From a virus, in the IMG/VR virus record IMGVR_UViG_3300023296_001674: 25,260 bases of DNA; one strand, written 5' to 3'. Position 1 is the stretch's first letter. Every line of letters starts with the position of its first letter. Shown here piece by piece: positions 5,916 through 24,368 of the stretch. Below the pieces are notes generated by a model. It did no database searches, was not told the origin of the DNA, and saw nothing but the letters and a program-made list of their open reading frames with translations. A program made the translations under genes and the position numbers.

Positions 5916-5991
5916 GCCGTATTAGTGACACTGGCTAACACGCCTGTTTTGTAATCAGGAAAATGGGGATCGATACCTCAATATGGCACCA
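5916..5991 (+). tRNA. tRNA-Thr (anticodon UGU), CCA encoded; T loop ATCGATA
   Basis: Acceptor GCCGTAT/ATATGGC; anticodon stem CCTGT/TCAGG, loop TTTGTAA; T arm TGGGG-ATCGATA-CCTCA. Confidence 0.55.
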
Positions 5992-7932: not shown

Positions 7933-8004
7933 ACCCCAGCCGATGCATTCGGACTCGAGTTTTCGAAACTTGACGGGAAGGTTTGATTCCTTCTTGGGGT
8001 GCCA
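7933..8004 (+). tRNA. tRNA-Arg (anticodon UCG) with atypical architecture (D hairpin directly after acceptor; T loop TTTGATT); CCA encoded
   Basis: Acceptor ACCCCAG/TTGGGGT; hairpin CCGA-TGCAT-TCGG; anticodon stem CGAGT/ACTTG, loop TTTCGAA; T arm GAAGG-TTTGATT-CCTTC. Confidence 0.55.
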
Positions 8005-9080: not shown

Positions 9081-9166
9081 TCGGATATAGGAGAATTGGT
9101 AGACCCAGAAGATTGTTAATCTTCCGCAGCAATGCATTCCAGGTTCGAGTCCTGGTATCCGAGCCA
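9081..9166 (+). tRNA. class-II (long variable arm) tRNA with Leu-like D loop (GAATTGGTAGAC), G73 and anticodon GUU (Asn codons); CCA encoded
   Basis: Acceptor TCGGATA/TATCCGA perfect; anticodon stem GAAGA/TCTTC perfect, loop TTGTTAA; variable arm 14 nt (GCA-GCAA-TGC); T arm CCAGG-TTCGAGT-CCTGG; G73-CCA. Confidence 0.55.
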
Positions 9167-9849: not shown

Positions 9850-9923
9850 AGGGGTATCGTATAGTGGTAATACGGTGGATTCCAAACTCACAGACCGGGG
9901 TTCGATCCCTCGTTCCCCTGCCA
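9850..9923 (+). tRNA. tRNA-Trp (anticodon CCA), CCA encoded
   Basis: Acceptor AGGGGTA/TTCCCCT; D GTAT/ATAC; anticodon stem GTGGA/CTCAC, loop TTCCAAA; T arm CGGGG-TTCGATC-CCTCG. Confidence 0.7.
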
Positions 9924-12593: not shown

Positions 12594-12848
12594 ATGAACA
12601 GAGAAACATTTGCCAATGCGTTAGAATACTATAGAAATATCAATATCCCACATGGATTTGATACGTGGGCTTATTTTGATGATATGCCGCCTGTTTTAAA
12701 GGAACGTGTTCGTGAATCGATGTCAAATAGAAATAGTGTAGCCATACATCAGATATTCAATGACGATGGCATGGAAGTGGCTATTGCAGTTCTAAATTTT
12801 TTAGACGAAACTGAAAAAGCGCAATATTATAAAACATACGACGATTAA
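12594..12848 (+). CDS. hypothetical protein (84 aa)
   Basis: ORF immediately downstream of tRNA-Gly; weak SD. Confidence 0.45.
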   Translation: MNRETFANALEYYRNINIPHGFDTWAYFDDMPPVLKERVRESMSNRNSVAIHQIFNDDGMEVAIAVLNFLDETEKAQYYKTYDD

Positions 12849-12851
12849 TAT

Positions 12852-12938
12852 AGAAGTACTTTGTATTGGTGAACTCAGCAGTCTCCAAAACTGTGTCGCA
12901 TTTGTGACTGGTAGGTTCGAATCCTACTACTTCTGCCA
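12852..12938 (+). tRNA. class-II tRNA (16-nt variable arm with 5-bp stem, G73) carrying anticodon CCA (UGG codon); CCA encoded
   Basis: Acceptor AGAAGTA/TACTTCT perfect; anticodon stem GCAGT/ACTGT, loop CTCCAAA; variable arm GTCGC-ATTT-GTGAC; T arm GTAGG-TTCGAAT-CCTAC perfect. Confidence 0.55.
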
Positions 12939-12993
12939 ATTTAACTCCCCATGATAAATATCATTTGTGACATAACGCGAATGGGGTAATATC

Positions 12994-13326
12994 ATGATGG
13001 ACGATGATACAAAAAACAGGTTCATAAAAACATTCAGTGATTATATCACAATGATTAAAGGCAAGCATGAATGTGCAAGACTTGTTGATATTAAAATGAT
13101 GGATTTATATACAATTGCGCCACATATATGCATTGTAGATATAGAACATCCATCGTTACGAAAGAAAATTATATTTTTTGGAACACAATTGGTATTAAAC
13201 GCTAATGCTGATTTAACTGGAACATACCTCGACTATGATGAATTAAACATTGATGATATATCCTTTCCATTATATGGTGATGGTGATATTATTGATCACA
13301 TTATAAGTGTTTCATTCAAAAATTAA
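12994..13326 (+). CDS. hypothetical protein (110 aa)
   Basis: ORF. A CCCCAT…ATGGGG hairpin spanning ~12949-12988 sits just upstream (12949-12954 and 12983-12988 are the stems) and may occlude the RBS. Confidence 0.5.
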   Translation: MMDDDTKNRFIKTFSDYITMIKGKHECARLVDIKMMDLYTIAPHICIVDIEHPSLRKKIIFFGTQLVLNANADLTGTYLDYDELNIDDISFPLYGDGDIIDHIISVSFKN

Positions 13327-13327
13327 T

Positions 13328-13400
13328 ATACCTCCGCTGATGGTTCAGACATAAGCTTGCGAAGCTTGTTGGGAAAGTTCGATTCTTTTCGGGGGTTCCA
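13328..13400 (+). tRNA. tRNA-Arg-like (anticodon GCG) with the same atypical D architecture as 7933-8004; CCA encoded
   Basis: Acceptor ACCTCCG/CGGGGGT; hairpin CTGA-TGGTT-TCAG; anticodon stem TAAGC/GCTTG, loop TTGCGAA; T arm GAAAG-TTCGATT-CTTTT. Confidence 0.5.
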
Positions 13401-13764: not shown

Positions 13765-13843
13765 TTGACTAGTAGCTCAGTGGTTTAGAGCGGGGAGTTC
13801 TAAACTCTCGACAGCGTTGGTTCAAATCCAACCTGGTCAACCA
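13765..13843 (+). tRNA. putative amber-suppressor tRNA (anticodon CUA, reads UAG); CCA encoded
   Basis: Acceptor TGACTAG/CTGGTCA; D GCTC-AGTGGTTTA-GAGC; anticodon stem GGGAG/CTCTC, loop TTCTAAA (U33, C34-U35-A36, A37); 7-nt variable region; T arm GTTGG-TTCAAAT-CCAAC; A73-CCA. Confidence 0.6.
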
Positions 13844-16329: not shown

Positions 16330-16586
16330 TGGCAAACCGAATAAGACAAATGGTTCGCCCTAGAATAATGCCGTATGCGTTTAAAATTTATAGTGATTTT
16401 ATGGATCGACGTAATGTACATAAAGATCACAACAAACAAATGGCAATATATGGATGGGTTAAAGACACGTTTGGTGAATCTAACTATGATGTATGGACTT
16501 CGCGGCGTGAACCCACACGATATGCAACAATGATATATTTTATGGATGATACATCCGCCATGGCATTTAAGCTGCAATGGATGTAA
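16329..16586 (+). CDS. hypothetical protein, tandem paralog B (RQMVRPRIMPYAFKIYSD…MIYFMDDTSAMAFKLQWM)
   Basis: Start overlaps the stop of paralog A (TAATG). Confidence 0.55.
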   Translation: MANRIRQMVRPRIMPYAFKIYSDFMDRRNVHKDHNKQMAIYGWVKDTFGESNYDVWTSRREPTRYATMIYFMDDTSAMAFKLQWM

Positions 16587-16603
16587 ATAAAGCGTGATGA
16601 TCG

Positions 16604-16641
16604 GGTATCTAGTTCGATTTTTATCGGGATACCAAAATTTT
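16604..16641 (+). terminator. rho-independent terminator containing a T-loop-like sequence
   Basis: GGTATC…GATACC stem (loop includes GTTCGATT) followed by AAAATTTTT; just after the stop of CDS 16329-16586. Confidence 0.55.
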
Positions 16642-16799
16642 TAACCCAAATAATAGGAGTTCGACATGAAAACGGGATAACTTAGCGGCGGTTTGCCGCA
16701 CACATGGATTACAGCTAAAATCAAGAAATTTAAACTTTAATTAAGGAGATACACAATGAGTAATGAAAACTCAAGGGTATCGCAGAAAGTTTAGACAGT

Positions 16800-17129
16800 A
16801 TGGATAAAGCTGCGCTAAAAACACTTTCCGATACTCTTAATCGGATATGGGGAATCCCTGAACCAAGGGTCTATTATCCGAATAAACATTTCGAAAAACC
16901 TGAACCAGTTGAACAGACAATGTTCTCAGTGTTCATTCTTGACGCTGGTCCTAAACGGATTAACGTCATTAAAGAAATCAGATCAATCTTAGGATTGACC
17001 CTGAAAGAATCAAAGGATTTTGTTGATAATATAGACAAGAGCCTTGTTCAAGAAGACTTAGAAAAATGGGATGCAGATGCATTAGCCGAAACATTATCAA
17101 ATGTTGGAGCAACTGTTGAAGTTTCTTAA
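16800..17129 (+). CDS. ribosomal protein bL12 (L7/L12) C-terminal-domain homolog with a non-canonical N-terminus
   Basis: C-terminal 70 aa FSVFILDAGPKRINVIKEIRSILGLTLKESKDFVDNIDKSLVQEDLEKWDADALAETLSNVGATVEVS align by eye with bacterial bL12 CTD (FDVIL…KVAVIK.VR..TGLGLKEAKDLVE…EAG..VEVK). Confidence 0.65.
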   Translation: MDKAALKTLSDTLNRIWGIPEPRVYYPNKHFEKPEPVEQTMFSVFILDAGPKRINVIKEIRSILGLTLKESKDFVDNIDKSLVQEDLEKWDADALAETLSNVGATVEVS

Positions 17130-17171
17130 AATATACCAGTTTGGTGTCTGGGGTATAAACAAAACACCACC

Positions 17172-17225
17172 TTCCTCTTTCGTATAGTGGTTATGATCTT
17201 TGTGTCGCAATCAGAGGACGATTTT
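17172..17225 (+). pseudogene. truncated paralog of the tRNA at 17331 (5' two-thirds; T arm replaced by TTTTTTG)
   Basis: TCGTATAGTGGTTATGATCTTTGTGTCGCAATCAGAGGACG matches 17338-17378 with a few substitutions; preceded by the hairpin GGTGT…ACACC. Confidence 0.3.
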
Positions 17226-17241
17226 TTGTGGAGGCAATTAT

Positions 17242-17325
17242 GCGCGTAGCCGGTATGTTGGTACTACCACTGGTCTTCCAAACCAGCGCGAAAGCATTGG
17301 GGTTTGATTCCCCCTACCCGCTCCA
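17242..17325 (+). tRNA. tRNA-Gly (anticodon UCC) with an 11-nt variable arm (84 nt); Gly-family acceptor; CCA encoded
   Basis: Acceptor GCGCGTA/TACCCGC-T-CCA; D GGTA/TACC; anticodon stem CTGGT/ACCAG perfect, loop CTTCCAA; variable CGCGAAAGCAT; T arm (T)GGGG-TTTGATT-CCCC(C). Confidence 0.6.
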
Positions 17326-17330
17326 ATCAA

Positions 17331-17405
17331 GCCCCATTCGTATAGTGGTCATTATCTCTGTGTCGTACTCAGAGGACGGCAGTTCGATTCCGCCATGGGG
17401 CACCA
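17331..17405 (+). tRNA. tRNA-Thr-like (anticodon CGU if the loop is 7 nt; loop region could be 9 nt), CCA encoded
   Basis: Acceptor GCCCCAT/ATGGGGC perfect; D GTAT/(T)TAT; anticodon stem CTCTG/CAGAG with TGTCGTACT between; T arm GGCAG-TTCGATT-CCGCC. Confidence 0.55.
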
Positions 17406-17471
17406 ATTACATATTGCATTATATCCTATTTTTTTATATAATAAATAAAAAGAACAATAGGACACGAAACT

Positions 17472-18023
17472 ATGCGCGGAACATTAGAAGTGATTACTGG
17501 CCCAATGTTTGCCGGTAAGACGACAGAAATAATAAAACGATTATTATGGTCAAAACATCAAGGTAAATCAACAATTATATACAAACCAGCAATGGATGAT
17601 AGATATAGTGAAACTGAAATAGTTACACATACCAAATTTTCATACGAAGCAACATCCATCATTGATAGTTTTAATATCAATCCAACATACGATCATTATT
17701 TTTTTGATGAAATACAGTTTCATGATAAAAATATTGTTCCATCTATAACTAAATTATTAGATGAAGGAAAAAATGTAACGGTGGCTGGTTTAGACGCTGA
17801 TTATAAAGGTGTTGCATTTGCGAACACTGCTACGTTAATGGCGATGGCAGACGAAGTATTTAAGATAAAATCGCATTGTAGTTTATGTGGCAAAGATGCT
17901 GCTAAAACATTTAAAACTGGTTCGACAAGCGACCAGCGCATAGAATTGGGTGAAAATGACTTATACCGTGCCAGATGTAATGAGCATTGGTATGTATCAG
18001 GAACTGACGATAGTTTTTCTTGA
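17472..18023 (+). CDS. tdk: thymidine kinase
   Basis: N-terminal P-loop ITGPMFAGKTTEIIKR and C-terminal Cys cluster CSLCGKDA…RCNEHW typical of type II thymidine kinases; TGA stop. Confidence 0.9.
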   Translation: MRGTLEVITGPMFAGKTTEIIKRLLWSKHQGKSTIIYKPAMDDRYSETEIVTHTKFSYEATSIIDSFNINPTYDHYFFDEIQFHDKNIVPSITKLLDEGKNVTVAGLDADYKGVAFANTATLMAMADEVFKIKSHCSLCGKDAAKTFKTGSTSDQRIELGENDLYRARCNEHWYVSGTDDSFS

Positions 18024-18048
18024 CAATATTTTTTATATAGCATATAAT
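18020..18048 (+). promoter_or_regulatory. sigma70-type promoter TTGACA-N17-TATAAT
   Basis: TTGACA 18020-18025, TATAAT 18043-18048; precedes the desaturase gene. Confidence 0.7.
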
Positions 18049-18079
18049 GTTAGTATACAAAATTTTTAGGAGATATTAA

Positions 18080-19063
18080 ATGGATAACAACAATTACAAC
18101 GATTTAAAACAGCGTTTGGTTAATGCAGGATGTTTCGAACGAGCGACATCGCATTATGTTCTACGTATTACAGCAATTCTAATTGCTTATGTGGGAGCAT
18201 ATTTTGTTCTGCTTACACAGCCACTAGGATTGGTTGCAGTGGGTGCATTGATTATTGCAGCCTTTGCCAGCGTTCAGGCTGGTTTCATTTCACACGATGC
18301 TGGTGATGGCGGTATTACATCAAATAAGATGCTATCTACCGGTATGCGACAATTCTTTTTATCGTTTGTTACTGGTGTGAGTAGTTCATATTTTCATGCA
18401 CTACATAAAGTGCATCACAAAACAATGTTTAAAGGATCATCGAAATCATCCGACACAGTTTCAGAAAATGAATACGAAGGCAAATGGTTGAAGAAATTAG
18501 TTTCACGTGATGGTTTGTTATTCATGGTAACGATGGTTACATTACGGGGATTCACATTCAAATTTGAAAGTGTAAAATATATGCTTAAACACGCCAATAA
18601 AACCGCCGCAGATCAACTGTTGGTGGGATTGCACGTTGTAGCATGGCTGATCGTTCCAATGATGATTATTGGACCAGTAGCCATTCTAAACTATGCATTA
18701 TTGACGTTGTTGATTGGACCTTATATCGGAACGGTATTGGTTATTAATCATGCCGGTATGGTAACAGCAAACCGACAAATGCATTTGCCTAAATTTGAAC
18801 GCGTAGTAAATACTACACGCAATCTTGGTGACGGCGTTTGGAACAATCTGTTCTTCGGTGGTGTAAACAACCATATTGAACACCATTTGTTTCCGGGTGT
18901 GCCAGTGCCAAATCTAGGTGAAGCTAGAAAGATTACTGAAGCCTTTTGTGAAGAACGTGGTATTAAATACACCAAAGCTTCATATTTCAGCGCATTAATC
19001 GAAGCCAAAGACCATTTCAAGGGTTTGTCTTCACAGAGATTAGTTGCTGAAGCACTCAACTAA
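18080..19063 (+). CDS. membrane fatty-acid desaturase-family protein (three His boxes)
   Basis: HDAGD, HKVHH and HIEHHLFP motifs plus multiple hydrophobic helices; SD TAGGAGA upstream. Confidence 0.8.
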   Translation: MDNNNYNDLKQRLVNAGCFERATSHYVLRITAILIAYVGAYFVLLTQPLGLVAVGALIIAAFASVQAGFISHDAGDGGITSNKMLSTGMRQFFLSFVTGVSSSYFHALHKVHHKTMFKGSSKSSDTVSENEYEGKWLKKLVSRDGLLFMVTMVTLRGFTFKFESVKYMLKHANKTAADQLLVGLHVVAWLIVPMMIIGPVAILNYALLTLLIGPYIGTVLVINHAGMVTANRQMHLPKFERVVNTTRNLGDGVWNNLFFGGVNNHIEHHLFPGVPVPNLGEARKITEAFCEERGIKYTKASYFSALIEAKDHFKGLSSQRLVAEALN

Positions 19064-20328: not shown

Positions 20329-20436
20329 TTCCAAGTAGCTCAGATGGTAGAGCGTCTGACTGTGGAACAGATGAGCCTAAAGCTTTGAAGTTCAAATTTA
20401 ATCAGAATGTCGGCGGTTCGATCCCGTCCTTGGAAG
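20329..20436 (+). tRNA. aberrant tRNA-like gene, 108 nt, no CCA: canonical 5' half and T arm separated by a ~39-nt insertion after the anticodon arm
   Basis: Acceptor TTCCAAG/CTTGGAA perfect; D GCTC-AGATGGTA-GAGC; anticodon-like stem TCTGA/(A)CAGA with loop CTGTGGA (GUG); insert contains TTGAA-G-TTCAA; T arm GGCGG-TTCGATC-CCGTC. Confidence 0.35.
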
Positions 20437-20575: not shown

Positions 20576-20667
20576 GCCTCGGTAGCTCAGAAAAGCAACG
20601 TAAGTTGTAGTGTAGTAGCAGGTGACTGAACCTCACCGTGTCGGTAGTTCGAATCTATCCTGGGGCA
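20576..20667 (+). tRNA. aberrant tRNA-like gene, 92 nt, no CCA: ~20 extra nt in the D region
   Basis: Acceptor GCCTCGG/CTGGGGC; 5' D stem GCTC with no partner; anticodon-like stem GGTGA/TCACC with loop CTGAACC (GAA); T arm GGTAG-TTCGAAT-CTATC. Confidence 0.35.
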
Positions 20668-22192: not shown

Positions 22193-23101
22193 ATGCTTTT
22201 TATTGGGTCTACTGCATTTAAACAACATCATAATTTACCGGGAATTTTACCGAAAGATATTGATGTTATGGGAACATACGAAGATGTTTCAAAGTATGTA
22301 AAAAGTCTTCATGGTGATCTGGTTGCTGCAAGACCATTTGCGGAAGGTAAGAAATATCTTTTCGTTAAGGCTGGTGATCATAAATCACCCGAAACAATTA
22401 TTGAAGCAGAGATTGCGTGGGAAGGATCGTTAGCAGAAGAATTTATCAAATTGATGGATGATACTGCTGGACATACACGATATGCTACATTGAATGGTTT
22501 ATATACCCTTAAGATGTCGCATCGATATTTGAGAAACTCGCCACATTTTTTAAAGACAATGCGTGATATTCATTTTATGAGAACACTGAAGGCTAGAATT
22601 CCAGATGAGTTGAAGGATTTTTACAAACGGCGAATGGCAGCAACGTATGATTATTCTCATCCTAATTTGAGTGTTACGAAAAAGACATTTTTTGATGGTG
22701 ATGGTATTGATTATAAATATGACCATGATTCAATCCATGAGACAGTTAAGATTGGTGAACATCCGGCTTATTGGTATTTTAAGCCAGATACAAGTGAAGT
22801 TGCGGTAAGCAAGGATTTGTTTGAAGCACTTGATTATGAATCACGAATCAATTCGGTTTTGGAAGAGGCGTATGTTCTTGCTATTGAACGTTCACAGGTT
22901 CCACATCCGGGTGTATTAACACGTAGAAAGAGTTTTGTTCTTGCATTAAATAAAGTATGCTCAAGCATTACTTCTGGATGGTGGAGAGAGTTCGCATGGG
23001 AGAATTATGATTCTGTGTATGAACGATATGACGATTCATATATGTATCGTTTTAACGCTGGAATAGATAGTGGATTGGTAAAACCATTCAATGAGGGATA
23101 G
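22193..23101 (+). CDS. hypothetical protein (302 aa), TAG stop
   Basis: SD AAAGGA upstream. Confidence 0.6.
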   Translation: MLFIGSTAFKQHHNLPGILPKDIDVMGTYEDVSKYVKSLHGDLVAARPFAEGKKYLFVKAGDHKSPETIIEAEIAWEGSLAEEFIKLMDDTAGHTRYATLNGLYTLKMSHRYLRNSPHFLKTMRDIHFMRTLKARIPDELKDFYKRRMAATYDYSHPNLSVTKKTFFDGDGIDYKYDHDSIHETVKIGEHPAYWYFKPDTSEVAVSKDLFEALDYESRINSVLEEAYVLAIERSQVPHPGVLTRRKSFVLALNKVCSSITSGWWREFAWENYDSVYERYDDSYMYRFNAGIDSGLVKPFNEG

Positions 23102-23740: not shown

Positions 23741-24368
23741 ATGCTTAGAGGAACACGTTTGATGACTGGTGCGGAAGCATCTACATACACGAACACTGTT
23801 GACACACTACGGAGGTGTCTTCATCGATAATAATGTCGAAGAAGTTATAGTTCCGTCGTTATGGGAACAGCAGACATTTATTGATAAAGCAGGAAGTGAA
23901 ATTGTAAATCAGATGTGGGCATTTGAAGATAAGAAAAATCGCCCCGTATGTTTGATACCAGAAGTTACTGGTGTTATACAAGAAATGTGGCGCGATGATT
24001 GGAGTAAATCCAAACCAAAGCCATATTCTATTTTTTATGTGAATCGTTGTTATCGTTATGAACGACCACAGAAGGGTAGATATAGAGAATTCACACAAAT
24101 CGGATTAGAAATTCTTGGTGATACATCAGGGAATGATTACGATATGGCAATTAATTTATTGCAAAAGTGTCTCGATTGTTTTACTATAGATTATAAACTT
24201 ACAGAAACGGTACAACGCGGTTTGGCGTATTATGTTGATGATGGGTTTGAAGTCGAATGTGAGAAGTTGGGCGCACAGAAGCAAATTGCTGGTGGTGGTC
24301 GATACAATGAAGGTATTGGTTGGGCTATCGGCGTTGATAGATTAATATTGGGGATTGATGATGACTAG
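23741..24368 (+). CDS. miniaturised histidyl-tRNA-synthetase-like protein (class II motifs 2 and 3) requiring a +1 frameshift near 23804-23812, or a frameshifted pseudogene
   Basis: Frame A (ATG 23741, SD AAAGGAGAAAG) encodes MLRGTRLMTGAEASTYTNTVDTL (compare HisRS …[23 protein letters not shown]) and stops at 23828. Frame B (+1, open from 23769) encodes …YGGVF…MWAFEDKKNRPVCLIPEVTG…CYRYERPQKGRYREFTQIG…IAGGGRYNEGIGWAIGVDRL. No anticodon-binding domain. Confidence 0.55.

Follow-up and report, generated by a model that had tools for sequence, protein, structure and literature searches.

A phage tRNA(CCA) gene with a long hairpin variable arm and its probable tryptophan identity

Structure and surroundings of the gene

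The window, i.e., the whole stretch of 25,260 nucleotides of viral DNA that was analysed, contains at 12852-12938 on its plus strand a class-II-shaped tRNA(CCA) gene of 87 nt including the encoded CCA, which was recognized by sequence reading and by a covariance model of its relatives (model R1, see below). It is confirmed to be a real tRNA gene with a CCA anticodon and a long hairpin variable arm. The 5' strand of the acceptor stem (AGAAGUA, 12852-12858) forms seven out of seven Watson-Crick pairs with positions 12928-12934, beginning with A1-U72, G2-C71, and A3-U70. The following connector (C8-U-U, 12859-12861) carries C, not U, at position 8 and comprises 3 nt versus 2 nt in most members of the subfamily described below, one U appearing as an insertion in the cmsearch alignment. 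The D arm UGU-AUUGGUGA-ACU (12862-12875) starts with a U.U mismatch, followed by two Watson-Crick pairs (G-C, which is pair 11-24, and U-A), and has A14, G18, G19, and A21 of the loop in place. Two nucleotides, CA by sequence reading, are situated between the D arm and the anticodon arm GCAGU-CUCCAAA-ACUGU (12878-12894), which has five pairs, one of them G.U, as well as U33 and A37; the anticodon itself (C34, C35, A36) was read at 12885-12887. The variable arm (12895-12910) is 16 nt long and consists of the hairpin GUCGC-AUUU-GUGAC, with five base pairs including one G.U, and of an unpaired UG; in RNAfold it adopts the structure (((((....))))).. with -5.6 kcal/mol. The T arm GUAGG-UUCGAAU-CCUAC (12911-12927) was recognized by sequence reading as well as by the covariance model, and the remaining part (12928-12938) comprises the 3' strand of the acceptor stem (UACUUCU), G73 (12935), and the encoded CCA (12936-12938), after which the sequence continues with AU. 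Throughout the 7-bp acceptor stem, the 5-bp anticodon stem with its 7-nt loop, and the 5-bp T stem with its UUCGAAU loop, all pairs are standard.

An earlier note on this DNA had described a class-II tRNA with G73 and a 5-bp variable-arm stem, with paired acceptor, anticodon, variable, and T stems and with an anticodon that pairs with UGG, and all of this can be read directly from the gene, with one G.U pair each in the anticodon and variable stems. The weak D arm was absent from that description. A shifted register, corresponding to Leu-CAA, was ruled out by inspection, since it needs C33 and breaks the 5-bp stem. The sequence of the window, including the extra U of the connector, is identical in an independent assembly (0 mismatches over 13,068 bases).

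Standard tools are silent at this position: ARAGORN called 27 tRNA genes across the window and none in 12800-13000, and Rfam returned no match to the gene at gathering score (the threshold of RF00005 being 29 bits). Both misses are probably due to the weak D arm region, with its two Watson-Crick pairs, the C8, and the 3-nt connector. The minimum-energy fold of the single sequence shows no cloverleaf and has a z-score of -1.6, a measure that is uninformative for tRNA. The sole Rfam match was obtained with the tRNA-Sec model RF01852 at 36.9 bits, which is below its gathering score of 47, the weak D arm being the probable reason here as well. Like the window tRNA, tRNA-Sec possesses G73 and a long variable arm, and the loop CUCCAAA is, as had been remarked earlier, one base away from the UCA/Sec-type loop CUUCAAA. 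However, tRNA-Sec has an 8/5 arrangement of acceptor and T stems, whereas that of the window tRNA is 7/5; its 6-bp D stem with a 4-nt loop is absent here, where the D stem is short; and its anticodon is UCA instead of CCA. On these grounds, together with the sub-threshold score, a tRNA-Sec identity was ruled out.

The source of the DNA is a huge phage, and an identical protein is found on a contig of 570,750 bp. The neighbourhood codes for a ribosomal L7/L12-like protein, a thymidine kinase, and a class-II aaRS-like fragment, and an AspRS-type enzyme is encoded just outside the window. Concerning the tRNA genes called by ARAGORN in the window, 26 out of 27 have AU or AA behind an encoded CCA, and their leader mostly ends with (A/U)AU; the flanks of the gene at 12852 (...AAUAU in front, CCA-AU at the end) follow this pattern of its neighbours. 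A canonical tRNA-Trp gene is located at 9850-9923, 3 kb upstream of the long-arm copy. The window also carries a CUA suppressor-type tRNA and a long-arm GUU tRNA. Megablast and blastn searches of the region against deposited phages gave only generic tRNA-Gly and short tRNA-arm matches and no close relative, and a search with the neighbouring 408-aa protein yielded no related loci among viral contigs.

Relatives of the gene and their distribution

A subfamily was defined by a scan for the D loop AUUGGUGA in combination with the anticodon arm, which resulted in 10 viral and 41 metagenome loci; together with the window copy, these represent 37 distinct sequences. Its members share a common layout: the acceptor stem has mostly A1-U72, C8 is followed by a position 9 that is either A or U, two covarying pairs come after a U10.U25 mismatch, and the D loop AUUGGUGA is succeeded by AA, the anticodon arm, a variable hairpin, the T arm, and G73. 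Both C8 and the AUUGGUGA D loop are invariant across the subfamily. The variable arm differs in sequence and length among the members, but its geometry is nearly constant, with no unpaired 5' base in 32 out of 33 and two unpaired 3' bases in 30 out of 33 sequences, and the window copy is alike in both respects.

In an alignment of 30 members, from which the window copy was excluded, 99.8% of the cells are in standard pairs, and changes on both sides are found in 15 of the 19 pairs, the invariance of four of the five anticodon-stem pairs being fixed by the search pattern and thus constituting no independent evidence. The two inner pairs of the D stem covary as well, exhibiting four and three pair types, respectively, with 100% of the cells paired. 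Shuffled and slid controls fell far below the real alignment. Covariance model R1, which equally excludes the window copy, matches 12852-12935 over its full length (model positions 1-80) with 72.8 bits and an E-value of about 5e-17, all 19 modelled pairs being standard and a single U being inserted after C8. The next best matches of R1 in the window are the long-arm GUU tRNA with 27 bits and the canonical tRNA-Trp with 17 bits. The window copy departs from the subfamily by its connector CUU (usually C-A or C-U) and by CA instead of the usual AA in front of the anticodon stem; a 3-nt connector is otherwise found only in one member, located on a 256-kb viral contig. Structural selection acts on the long-arm tRNA-Trp set. 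The unusual D arm is, as far as covariation can tell, a conserved trait of the family and not damage.

These results also bear on the explanation that the gene is a decaying or otherwise non-functional duplicate, i.e., a tRNA pseudogene kept by chance in the array. The silence of ARAGORN and of Rfam at gathering score, the weak D stem with the extra U of the connector, the weak single-sequence z-score, and the presence of a canonical tRNA-Trp 3 kb upstream would all be in line with such decay. Nevertheless, it is unlikely, as the modelled pairs are intact and score highly against a model of strongly covarying relatives, none of the invariant features (D loop, T loop, U33, A37, G73, and the encoded CCA) is missing, the gene shares its processing context with the neighbouring genes, and the unusual D arm is conserved in the family, where even the 3-nt connector has its counterpart.

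Beyond this subfamily, viral contigs were searched for this anticodon arm in combination with an arbitrary spacer, which gave 23 loci, 10 of them with long spacers. A broader scan, for the loop CUCCAAA followed after 20-32 nt by GGTTCGAATCC, found at least 119 viral loci, and among the loci listed ARAGORN called at least 111 long tRNA(CCA) genes (80 nt or more), at least 87 of them distinct. With the same pattern, a 596-Gb collection of cellular genomes yielded 120 loci listed, 14 of which contain a long-arm tRNA(CCA) according to ARAGORN, seven of these 14 being situated on MAG contigs within arrays that comprise 4-18 tRNA genes. In the other 106 of the 120 cellular matches listed, ARAGORN called no long-arm tRNA(CCA), which is in line with the roughly estimated number of about 200 matches that an 18-base pattern would have by chance in 596 Gb. 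Verified long-arm copies are thus far more frequent in the viral than in the cellular scan among the matches listed. In a scan neutral to arm length, the long arm was present in 20 out of 120 loci (about 17%), i.e., in about one sixth of the matched phage tRNA-Trp genes.

The viral loci listed contain a median of seven tRNA genes each. Among 111 of them, a class-I tRNA-Trp was also found in only five, whereas the fetched part of the array contains no tRNA(CCA) other than the long-arm form in 106, and in 38 of the 111 there are further long-arm tRNAs with anticodons of class-I amino acids. A description of long-arm tRNA-Trp as a class was not found in the searchable literature, which leaves most subscription journals outside, and earlier work may exist.

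Tryptophan versus serine identity

In bacteria, a long variable arm is normally limited to the tRNAs for Leu, Ser, Tyr, and Sec. Class-II-shaped tRNAs with anticodons for neither Leu nor Ser have nevertheless been described as nev-tRNAs in nematodes, nov-tRNAs in eukaryotes, and allo-tRNAs in bacteria, which resemble the window tRNA in combining a long variable arm with the anticodon of a class-I amino acid (PMC3333845, PMC5389517). They keep, however, the identity of a Leu or Ser body and either misdecode or are inactive (PMC3333845, PMC5389517), and in allo-tRNAs (Mukai et al. 2017) the acceptor and T stems are arranged 8/4 or 9/3 and the D arm is Sec-like, unlike the 7/5 arrangement found here (PMC5389517). 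In the window tRNA, on the contrary, the acceptor identity matches the anticodon, both being of the Trp type, and the carriers are phages.

Bacterial Trp identity resides in the anticodon, G73, and the first acceptor pair A1-U72, to which G2-C71 and G3-C70 are added in B. subtilis (PMC9976931). Of these acceptor pairs, A1-U72 and G2-C71 are present in the window copy, whereas its third pair is A3-U70 and not G3-C70. Ser identity depends on the size of the variable arm, on tertiary shape, and on G73, with near-invariant G1-C72 and G2-C71; SerRS ignores the anticodon, and C2-G71 is an anti-determinant against it (PMC9976931).

The tRNAs of the viral loci were parsed with a simple cloverleaf parser and compared by class, the sampling being pattern-based. 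Among the matches listed, 83 distinct long-arm CCA sequences have G73 in 77 cases and U72 in 67 (A1-U72 in 46, G1.U72 in 21). The class-I tRNA-Trp of the same loci (n = 15 among the matches listed) exhibit G73 in 14 cases, A1-U72 in eight, and G1.U72 in four, such that the acceptor profiles of the two forms are indistinguishable within the same phage loci as listed. Phage tRNA-Ser from these loci (n = 51 among the matches listed) have G73 in 41 cases, G1-C72 in 48, G2-C71 in 46, and A3-U70 in 42. Classified by acceptor type, the 83 viral sequences listed comprise 66 of the Trp type, two of the Ser type, and 15 others, several of which are parser offsets of G1.U72 cases.

With class-I tRNA-Trp, the window tRNA has in common the loop CUCCAAA, G73, A1-U72, G2-C71, the 7/5 arrangement of acceptor and T stems, and the canonical T loop. 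It differs from them in the variable region, which is a loop of 4-5 nt in class-I tRNA-Trp, but a hairpin of 12-22 nt in the long-arm set, and in its D stem of three positions including a U.U, as well as in C8 in place of U8.

The earlier note had regarded the body as Ser-like, and the corresponding explanation, a tRNA of Ser identity that decodes UGG for deliberate Trp-to-Ser mistranslation or recoding, would draw on several features of the window copy. Its long hairpin arm of 16 nt and 5 bp and its G73 are shared with class-II tRNA-Ser, as are G2-C71 and A3-U70, and its acceptor stem differs from the consensus of phage tRNA-Ser only at the first pair; moreover, SerRS is blind to the anticodon and guided by arm size, tertiary shape, and G73 (PMC9976931). 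True Ser-bodied tRNA(CCA) genes do occur elsewhere, in Pelagibius (L222), Saccharibacteria (L236), and Agrobacterium (L241) and in one viral locus (L069), all with G1-C72, G2-C71, and G73, with Ser-type D arms, and with variable arms of 18-20 nt.

By its sequence features, however, the window gene is not one of these. It has A1-U72 and not the near-invariant G1-C72, it lacks U8 and the Ser-type D arm (UG-GCC-GAGNGGUUGAA-GGC), and its pair 11-24 is G-C, whereas C11-G24 is known as a Ser determinant from studies in E. coli. The variable arms of phage tRNA-Ser measure 15-23 nt with stems of mostly 5-6 bp, whereas those of long-arm tRNA-Trp are shorter (mostly 12-16 nt with 3-4-bp stems) and of a different geometry, the window arm with its 16 nt and 5 bp being at the short end of the Ser range. 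In the subfamily, 24 out of 30 members carry the SerRS anti-determinant C2-G71, whereas the window copy has G2-C71, and the U72/G73 profile of the entire family is that of Trp among the matches listed. Among the loci listed, furthermore, the fetched stretch of the array usually has no Trp decoder besides the long-arm form.

Proteins of the phage provide a further argument. In a conserved protein of 302 aa encoded at 22193-23101, three out of five UGG codons are located in columns that are 97-99% Trp among 119 homologues, and a fourth in a Phe/Trp column. As judged from such conserved columns, UGG is thereby shown to mean Trp in this phage, and a Ser-inserting tRNA would damage proteins of this kind. 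Altogether, a Ser body is quite unlikely, and the A1-U72 pair, the non-Ser D arm, the geometry of the variable arm, and the Trp-type acceptor profile of the family speak against the earlier assignment. Partial charging of the window copy by SerRS might still occur, given its G2-C71, A3-U70, G73, and 5-bp variable arm.

The short variable stems (3-4 bp) of the long-arm Trp set are most similar to those of phage tRNA-Tyr, and C8 is likewise shared, being found in 25 out of 83 long-arm Trp and eight out of 31 Tyr sequences and almost nowhere else among the matches listed. TyrRS is a close relative of TrpRS, and tRNA-Tyr is the one bacterial class-II tRNA with such a synthetase. Unlike tRNA-Tyr, the window tRNA has G73 and not A73, CCA and not GUA as anticodon, and another D-loop sequence. 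A single Ser or Tyr origin of the body was rejected, since the nearest neighbours of the D arms belong to several isotypes (20 Ser, 15 Cys, 12 Asp, 11 Tyr, and others). The region from position 8 to 26 of the window tRNA (CUUUGUAUUGGUGAACUCA) reaches only 0.32 in its best match to any non-Trp isotype. In a crude regular-expression search of short flanks, none of the 720 ORFs with 200 aa or more beside long-arm tRNA-Trp genes exhibited the HIGH plus KMSKS motifs of a TrpRS or TyrRS.

Long-arm tRNAs of other isotypes equally carry their own discriminators among the matches listed: A73 in 10 out of 12 Lys, C73 in eight out of nine His, U73 in four out of five Cys, A73 in all seven Met and all four Ile, G73 in all seven Asn, and U73 in all three Thr sequences, and A73 also in Val tRNAs. 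The long arm thus travels with cognate identity sets and not with Ser identity. It appears to be an addition to an otherwise Trp-cognate tRNA and not a signal for serine, and long-arm tRNA-Trp appear to keep their Trp identity, unlike the known exceptions that misdecode or are inactive.

Decoding and possible role of the long arm

Given the identity elements discussed above, the window gene is probably a functional Trp-accepting phage tRNA with a class-II-like body. It would be transcribed and processed within the phage tRNA array in the same way as its neighbours, TrpRS would charge it with tryptophan via the CCA anticodon, G73, and A1-U72, and EF-Tu would deliver it to the ribosome, where UGG would be read as Trp. 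That most of the fetched arrays have no Trp tRNA besides the long-arm form argues for such a role as decoder, although in the present phage the long-arm copy could be redundant because of the canonical tRNA-Trp at 9850-9923.

The earlier note had furthermore proposed a set of non-standard decoding tRNAs and, as a check, unusual UGG or UGA usage. Other unusual tRNAs are indeed present nearby, but non-standard decoding finds no support in the UGG codons, which are located at Trp columns, or in codon use: UGG accounts for 1.8% of the codons in the window, and of the 32 ORFs in the window, 21 end with TAA, six with TAG, and five with TGA, such that the usage of UGG as well as of stop codons is ordinary. 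Reading TAG or TGA as sense lengthens the ORFs less than reading TAA as sense does, and this smaller gain gives no sign of a reassignment of TAG or TGA.

A Trp tRNA with altered decoding, in which a remodelled hinge lets the CCA anticodon also read UGA for readthrough or for UGA-to-Trp recoding, would rest purely on structural analogy. The hinge of the window tRNA, with C8, U10.U25, the G27.U43 wobble, and a variable arm starting from position 44, would resemble the Hirsh G24A and A9C mutants or the tRNA-Trp with a 4-bp anticodon stem, and near-cognate reading of UGA by tRNA-Trp(CCA) depends on the hinge residues 9-12, 23-26, 44, and 45 (PMC13092985). The hinge region is strongly non-canonical across the subfamily, and the phage also has a CUA suppressor-type tRNA. 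Against this, TGA serves as stop in the ORFs of the window as just described, with a smaller gain as sense codon than TAA, and none of the genes in the window needs in-frame UGA readthrough, which makes such an additional function very unlikely. A tRNA-shaped RNA outside translation, which might, e.g., serve as a substrate of a phage enzyme or act as a decoy or sponge against nucleases or toxins of the host that target tRNAs, is the least probable explanation. Some irregular bacterial tRNAs are indeed charged yet unused in translation (PMC5389517), and a standard tRNA-Trp already exists in this phage, but the anticodon loop is conserved family-wide together with the entire Trp identity set, and among the loci listed most of the fetched flanks have no Trp tRNA besides the long-arm form.

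For the Trp-accepting decoder favoured here, our leading guess concerning the arm is that it alters recognition by host tRNA-targeting factors or by host-shutoff enzymes of the phage, while function with TrpRS, EF-Tu, and the ribosome is kept. Defence nucleases are reported to cut tRNAs in the anticodon and variable loops (PMC13096335, PMC12673091, PMC13273310), and phage tRNAs can escape via changes of the anticodon loop (PMC10264068). By analogy with these cuts and this mode of escape, an evasion based on shape seems plausible.

In a more general and rather speculative view, which we consider doubtful, phages with large tRNA arrays might systematically 're-body' their tRNAs, i.e., place cognate identity sets (Trp, Asn, Gly, Lys, His, Cys, Met, Ile) on class-II or Sec/allo-like shapes, such that the decoders stay chargeable and evade host immune nucleases and toxins or the tRNA-destroying enzymes of the phage itself; long-arm tRNA-Trp would then be the commonest example. 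If the present interpretation is confirmed, it would be directly testable how far TrpRS, EF-Tu, and the ribosome tolerate a grafted arm, which is useful for the design of orthogonal tRNAs, and the comparison of long-arm and short-arm forms against tRNA-targeting defences would give concrete access to the question of why phages have tRNAs of their own. It would also mean that genes of this kind tend to be under-called by standard tRNA finders or mis-flagged on account of isotype expectations, as here.

Some such genes are already labelled as tRNA-Trp by annotation pipelines, e.g., an 82-nt gene in the Brevundimonas phage Kabachok, which possesses a class-II-type D arm and a variable region of only 8 nt.

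Long-arm tRNAs for other amino acids

The hairpin variable arm is not confined to the tRNA(CCA) genes of these phages. The window carries a further long-arm tRNA at 9081-9166 on the plus strand, detected by both ARAGORN and Rfam, with the anticodon GUU (Asn), U1-A72, G73, and a variable arm of 14 nt; it is the sole Asn tRNA of the window. Including this copy, the viral loci and the window contain at least seven distinct long-arm Asn tRNAs, and among the matches listed G73 is found in all seven and U1-A72 in five of them. The GUU tRNA looks like a case of "cognate identity on a class-II body", the pattern that the long-arm Trp tRNAs also appear to follow.

The same phage arrays (viral loci L001-L139; examples are L013, L019, L016, and L221) also contain long-arm tRNAs for Lys, His, Cys, Met, Ile, Thr, Val, and Arg, and each of these exhibits the discriminator that belongs to its own amino acid. 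Among the matches listed, 38 of the 111 long-arm Trp loci possess at least one tRNA of this kind. Concerning the hairpin itself, a GNRA tetraloop, mostly GAAA, closes the variable arm in 66% of the long-arm Trp tRNAs, and in 29% of the Ser, 44% of the Leu, and 9% of the Tyr tRNAs of phages (viral loci, among the matches listed); in the tRNA(CCA) of the window (12852-12938, plus strand), this loop is AUUU (12900-12903).

True tRNA-Ser bodies with the anticodon CCA

Four tRNA(CCA) genes elsewhere are true tRNA-Ser bodies: singletons on the bacterial chromosome of Pelagibius sp. 7325 (L222, 1918-2007), in a Saccharibacteria MAG (L236, 3421-3512), and on chromosome 2 of Agrobacterium sp. rho-13.3 (L241, 2592-2681), as well as one copy on a viral contig (L069). 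All of them combine the anticodon CCA with G1-C72, G2-C71, G73, and a D arm of Ser type, and have variable arms measuring 18-20 nt. The anticodon stem contains two U.U mismatches in the Agrobacterium copy, and the Saccharibacteria copy has a mismatch at 27-43. These four genes are candidates for misdecoding of UGG as Ser or for a regulatory role.

Other unusual tRNAs and shared flanks within the window

A tRNA of Sec/allo-like shape is situated at 17241-17322 on the plus strand; it scores 38.4 bits with the Rfam tRNA-Sec model, and neither an ARAGORN call nor an Rfam match at the gathering score was obtained for it. Its acceptor stem comprises 8 bp with one C.C mismatch, its T stem 4 bp, the long D stem bears a loop of 4 nt, and the variable arm forms a hairpin. 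Because the anticodon loop reads CUUCCAA, the anticodon is UCC, and this gene is the only UCC decoder seen within the window. It exhibits G1-C72, C2-G71, G3-C70, and U73, which make up the bacterial Gly identity set, and is followed by the trailer CCAAU.

The CUA tRNA at 13766-13843 (plus strand), labeled Pyl by ARAGORN, resembles phage tRNA-Gln in its acceptor profile (U1-A72, A73), U1-A72 being found in 17 of the 20 phage tRNA-Gln compared. An amber suppressor of Gln type is the probable reading; nonetheless, TAG terminates 6 of the 32 ORFs of the window.

Further matches have no ARAGORN call. Two are Rfam tRNA matches on the plus strand (20329-20436 and 20576-20667): in one, the anticodon loop is interrupted by 38 inserted nt, perhaps an intron, and in the other, the D loop contains an insertion of 26 nt. 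Weak tRNA-like matches were obtained at 13330-13397 and 7933-8001 (19-20 bits each, covariance model of the window subfamily), and at 5916-5988 (43 bits, Rfam tRNA model). The array probably includes tRNA genes beyond those listed by ARAGORN or Rfam.

In 26 of the 27 tRNA genes called by ARAGORN in the window (e.g., 4683-25210), the encoded CCA is followed by AU or AA (CCAAU/CCAAA), and in most of the 27 the leader ends with (A/U)AU. These common flanks suggest that the genes have a processing signal in common or that they were duplicated as a unit.

Phage source and translation genes

The window derives from a huge phage, and a protein identical to one of its proteins is recorded on a contig of 570,750 bp. 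Translation genes are abundant in the region: the window encodes a ribosomal L7/L12-like protein (16800-17129) and a class-II aaRS-like fragment of 199 aa belonging to the HisRS/2b family (23769-24368), and an AspRS-type synthetase of 604 aa is located just beyond its end (16365-18179 of locus L310).
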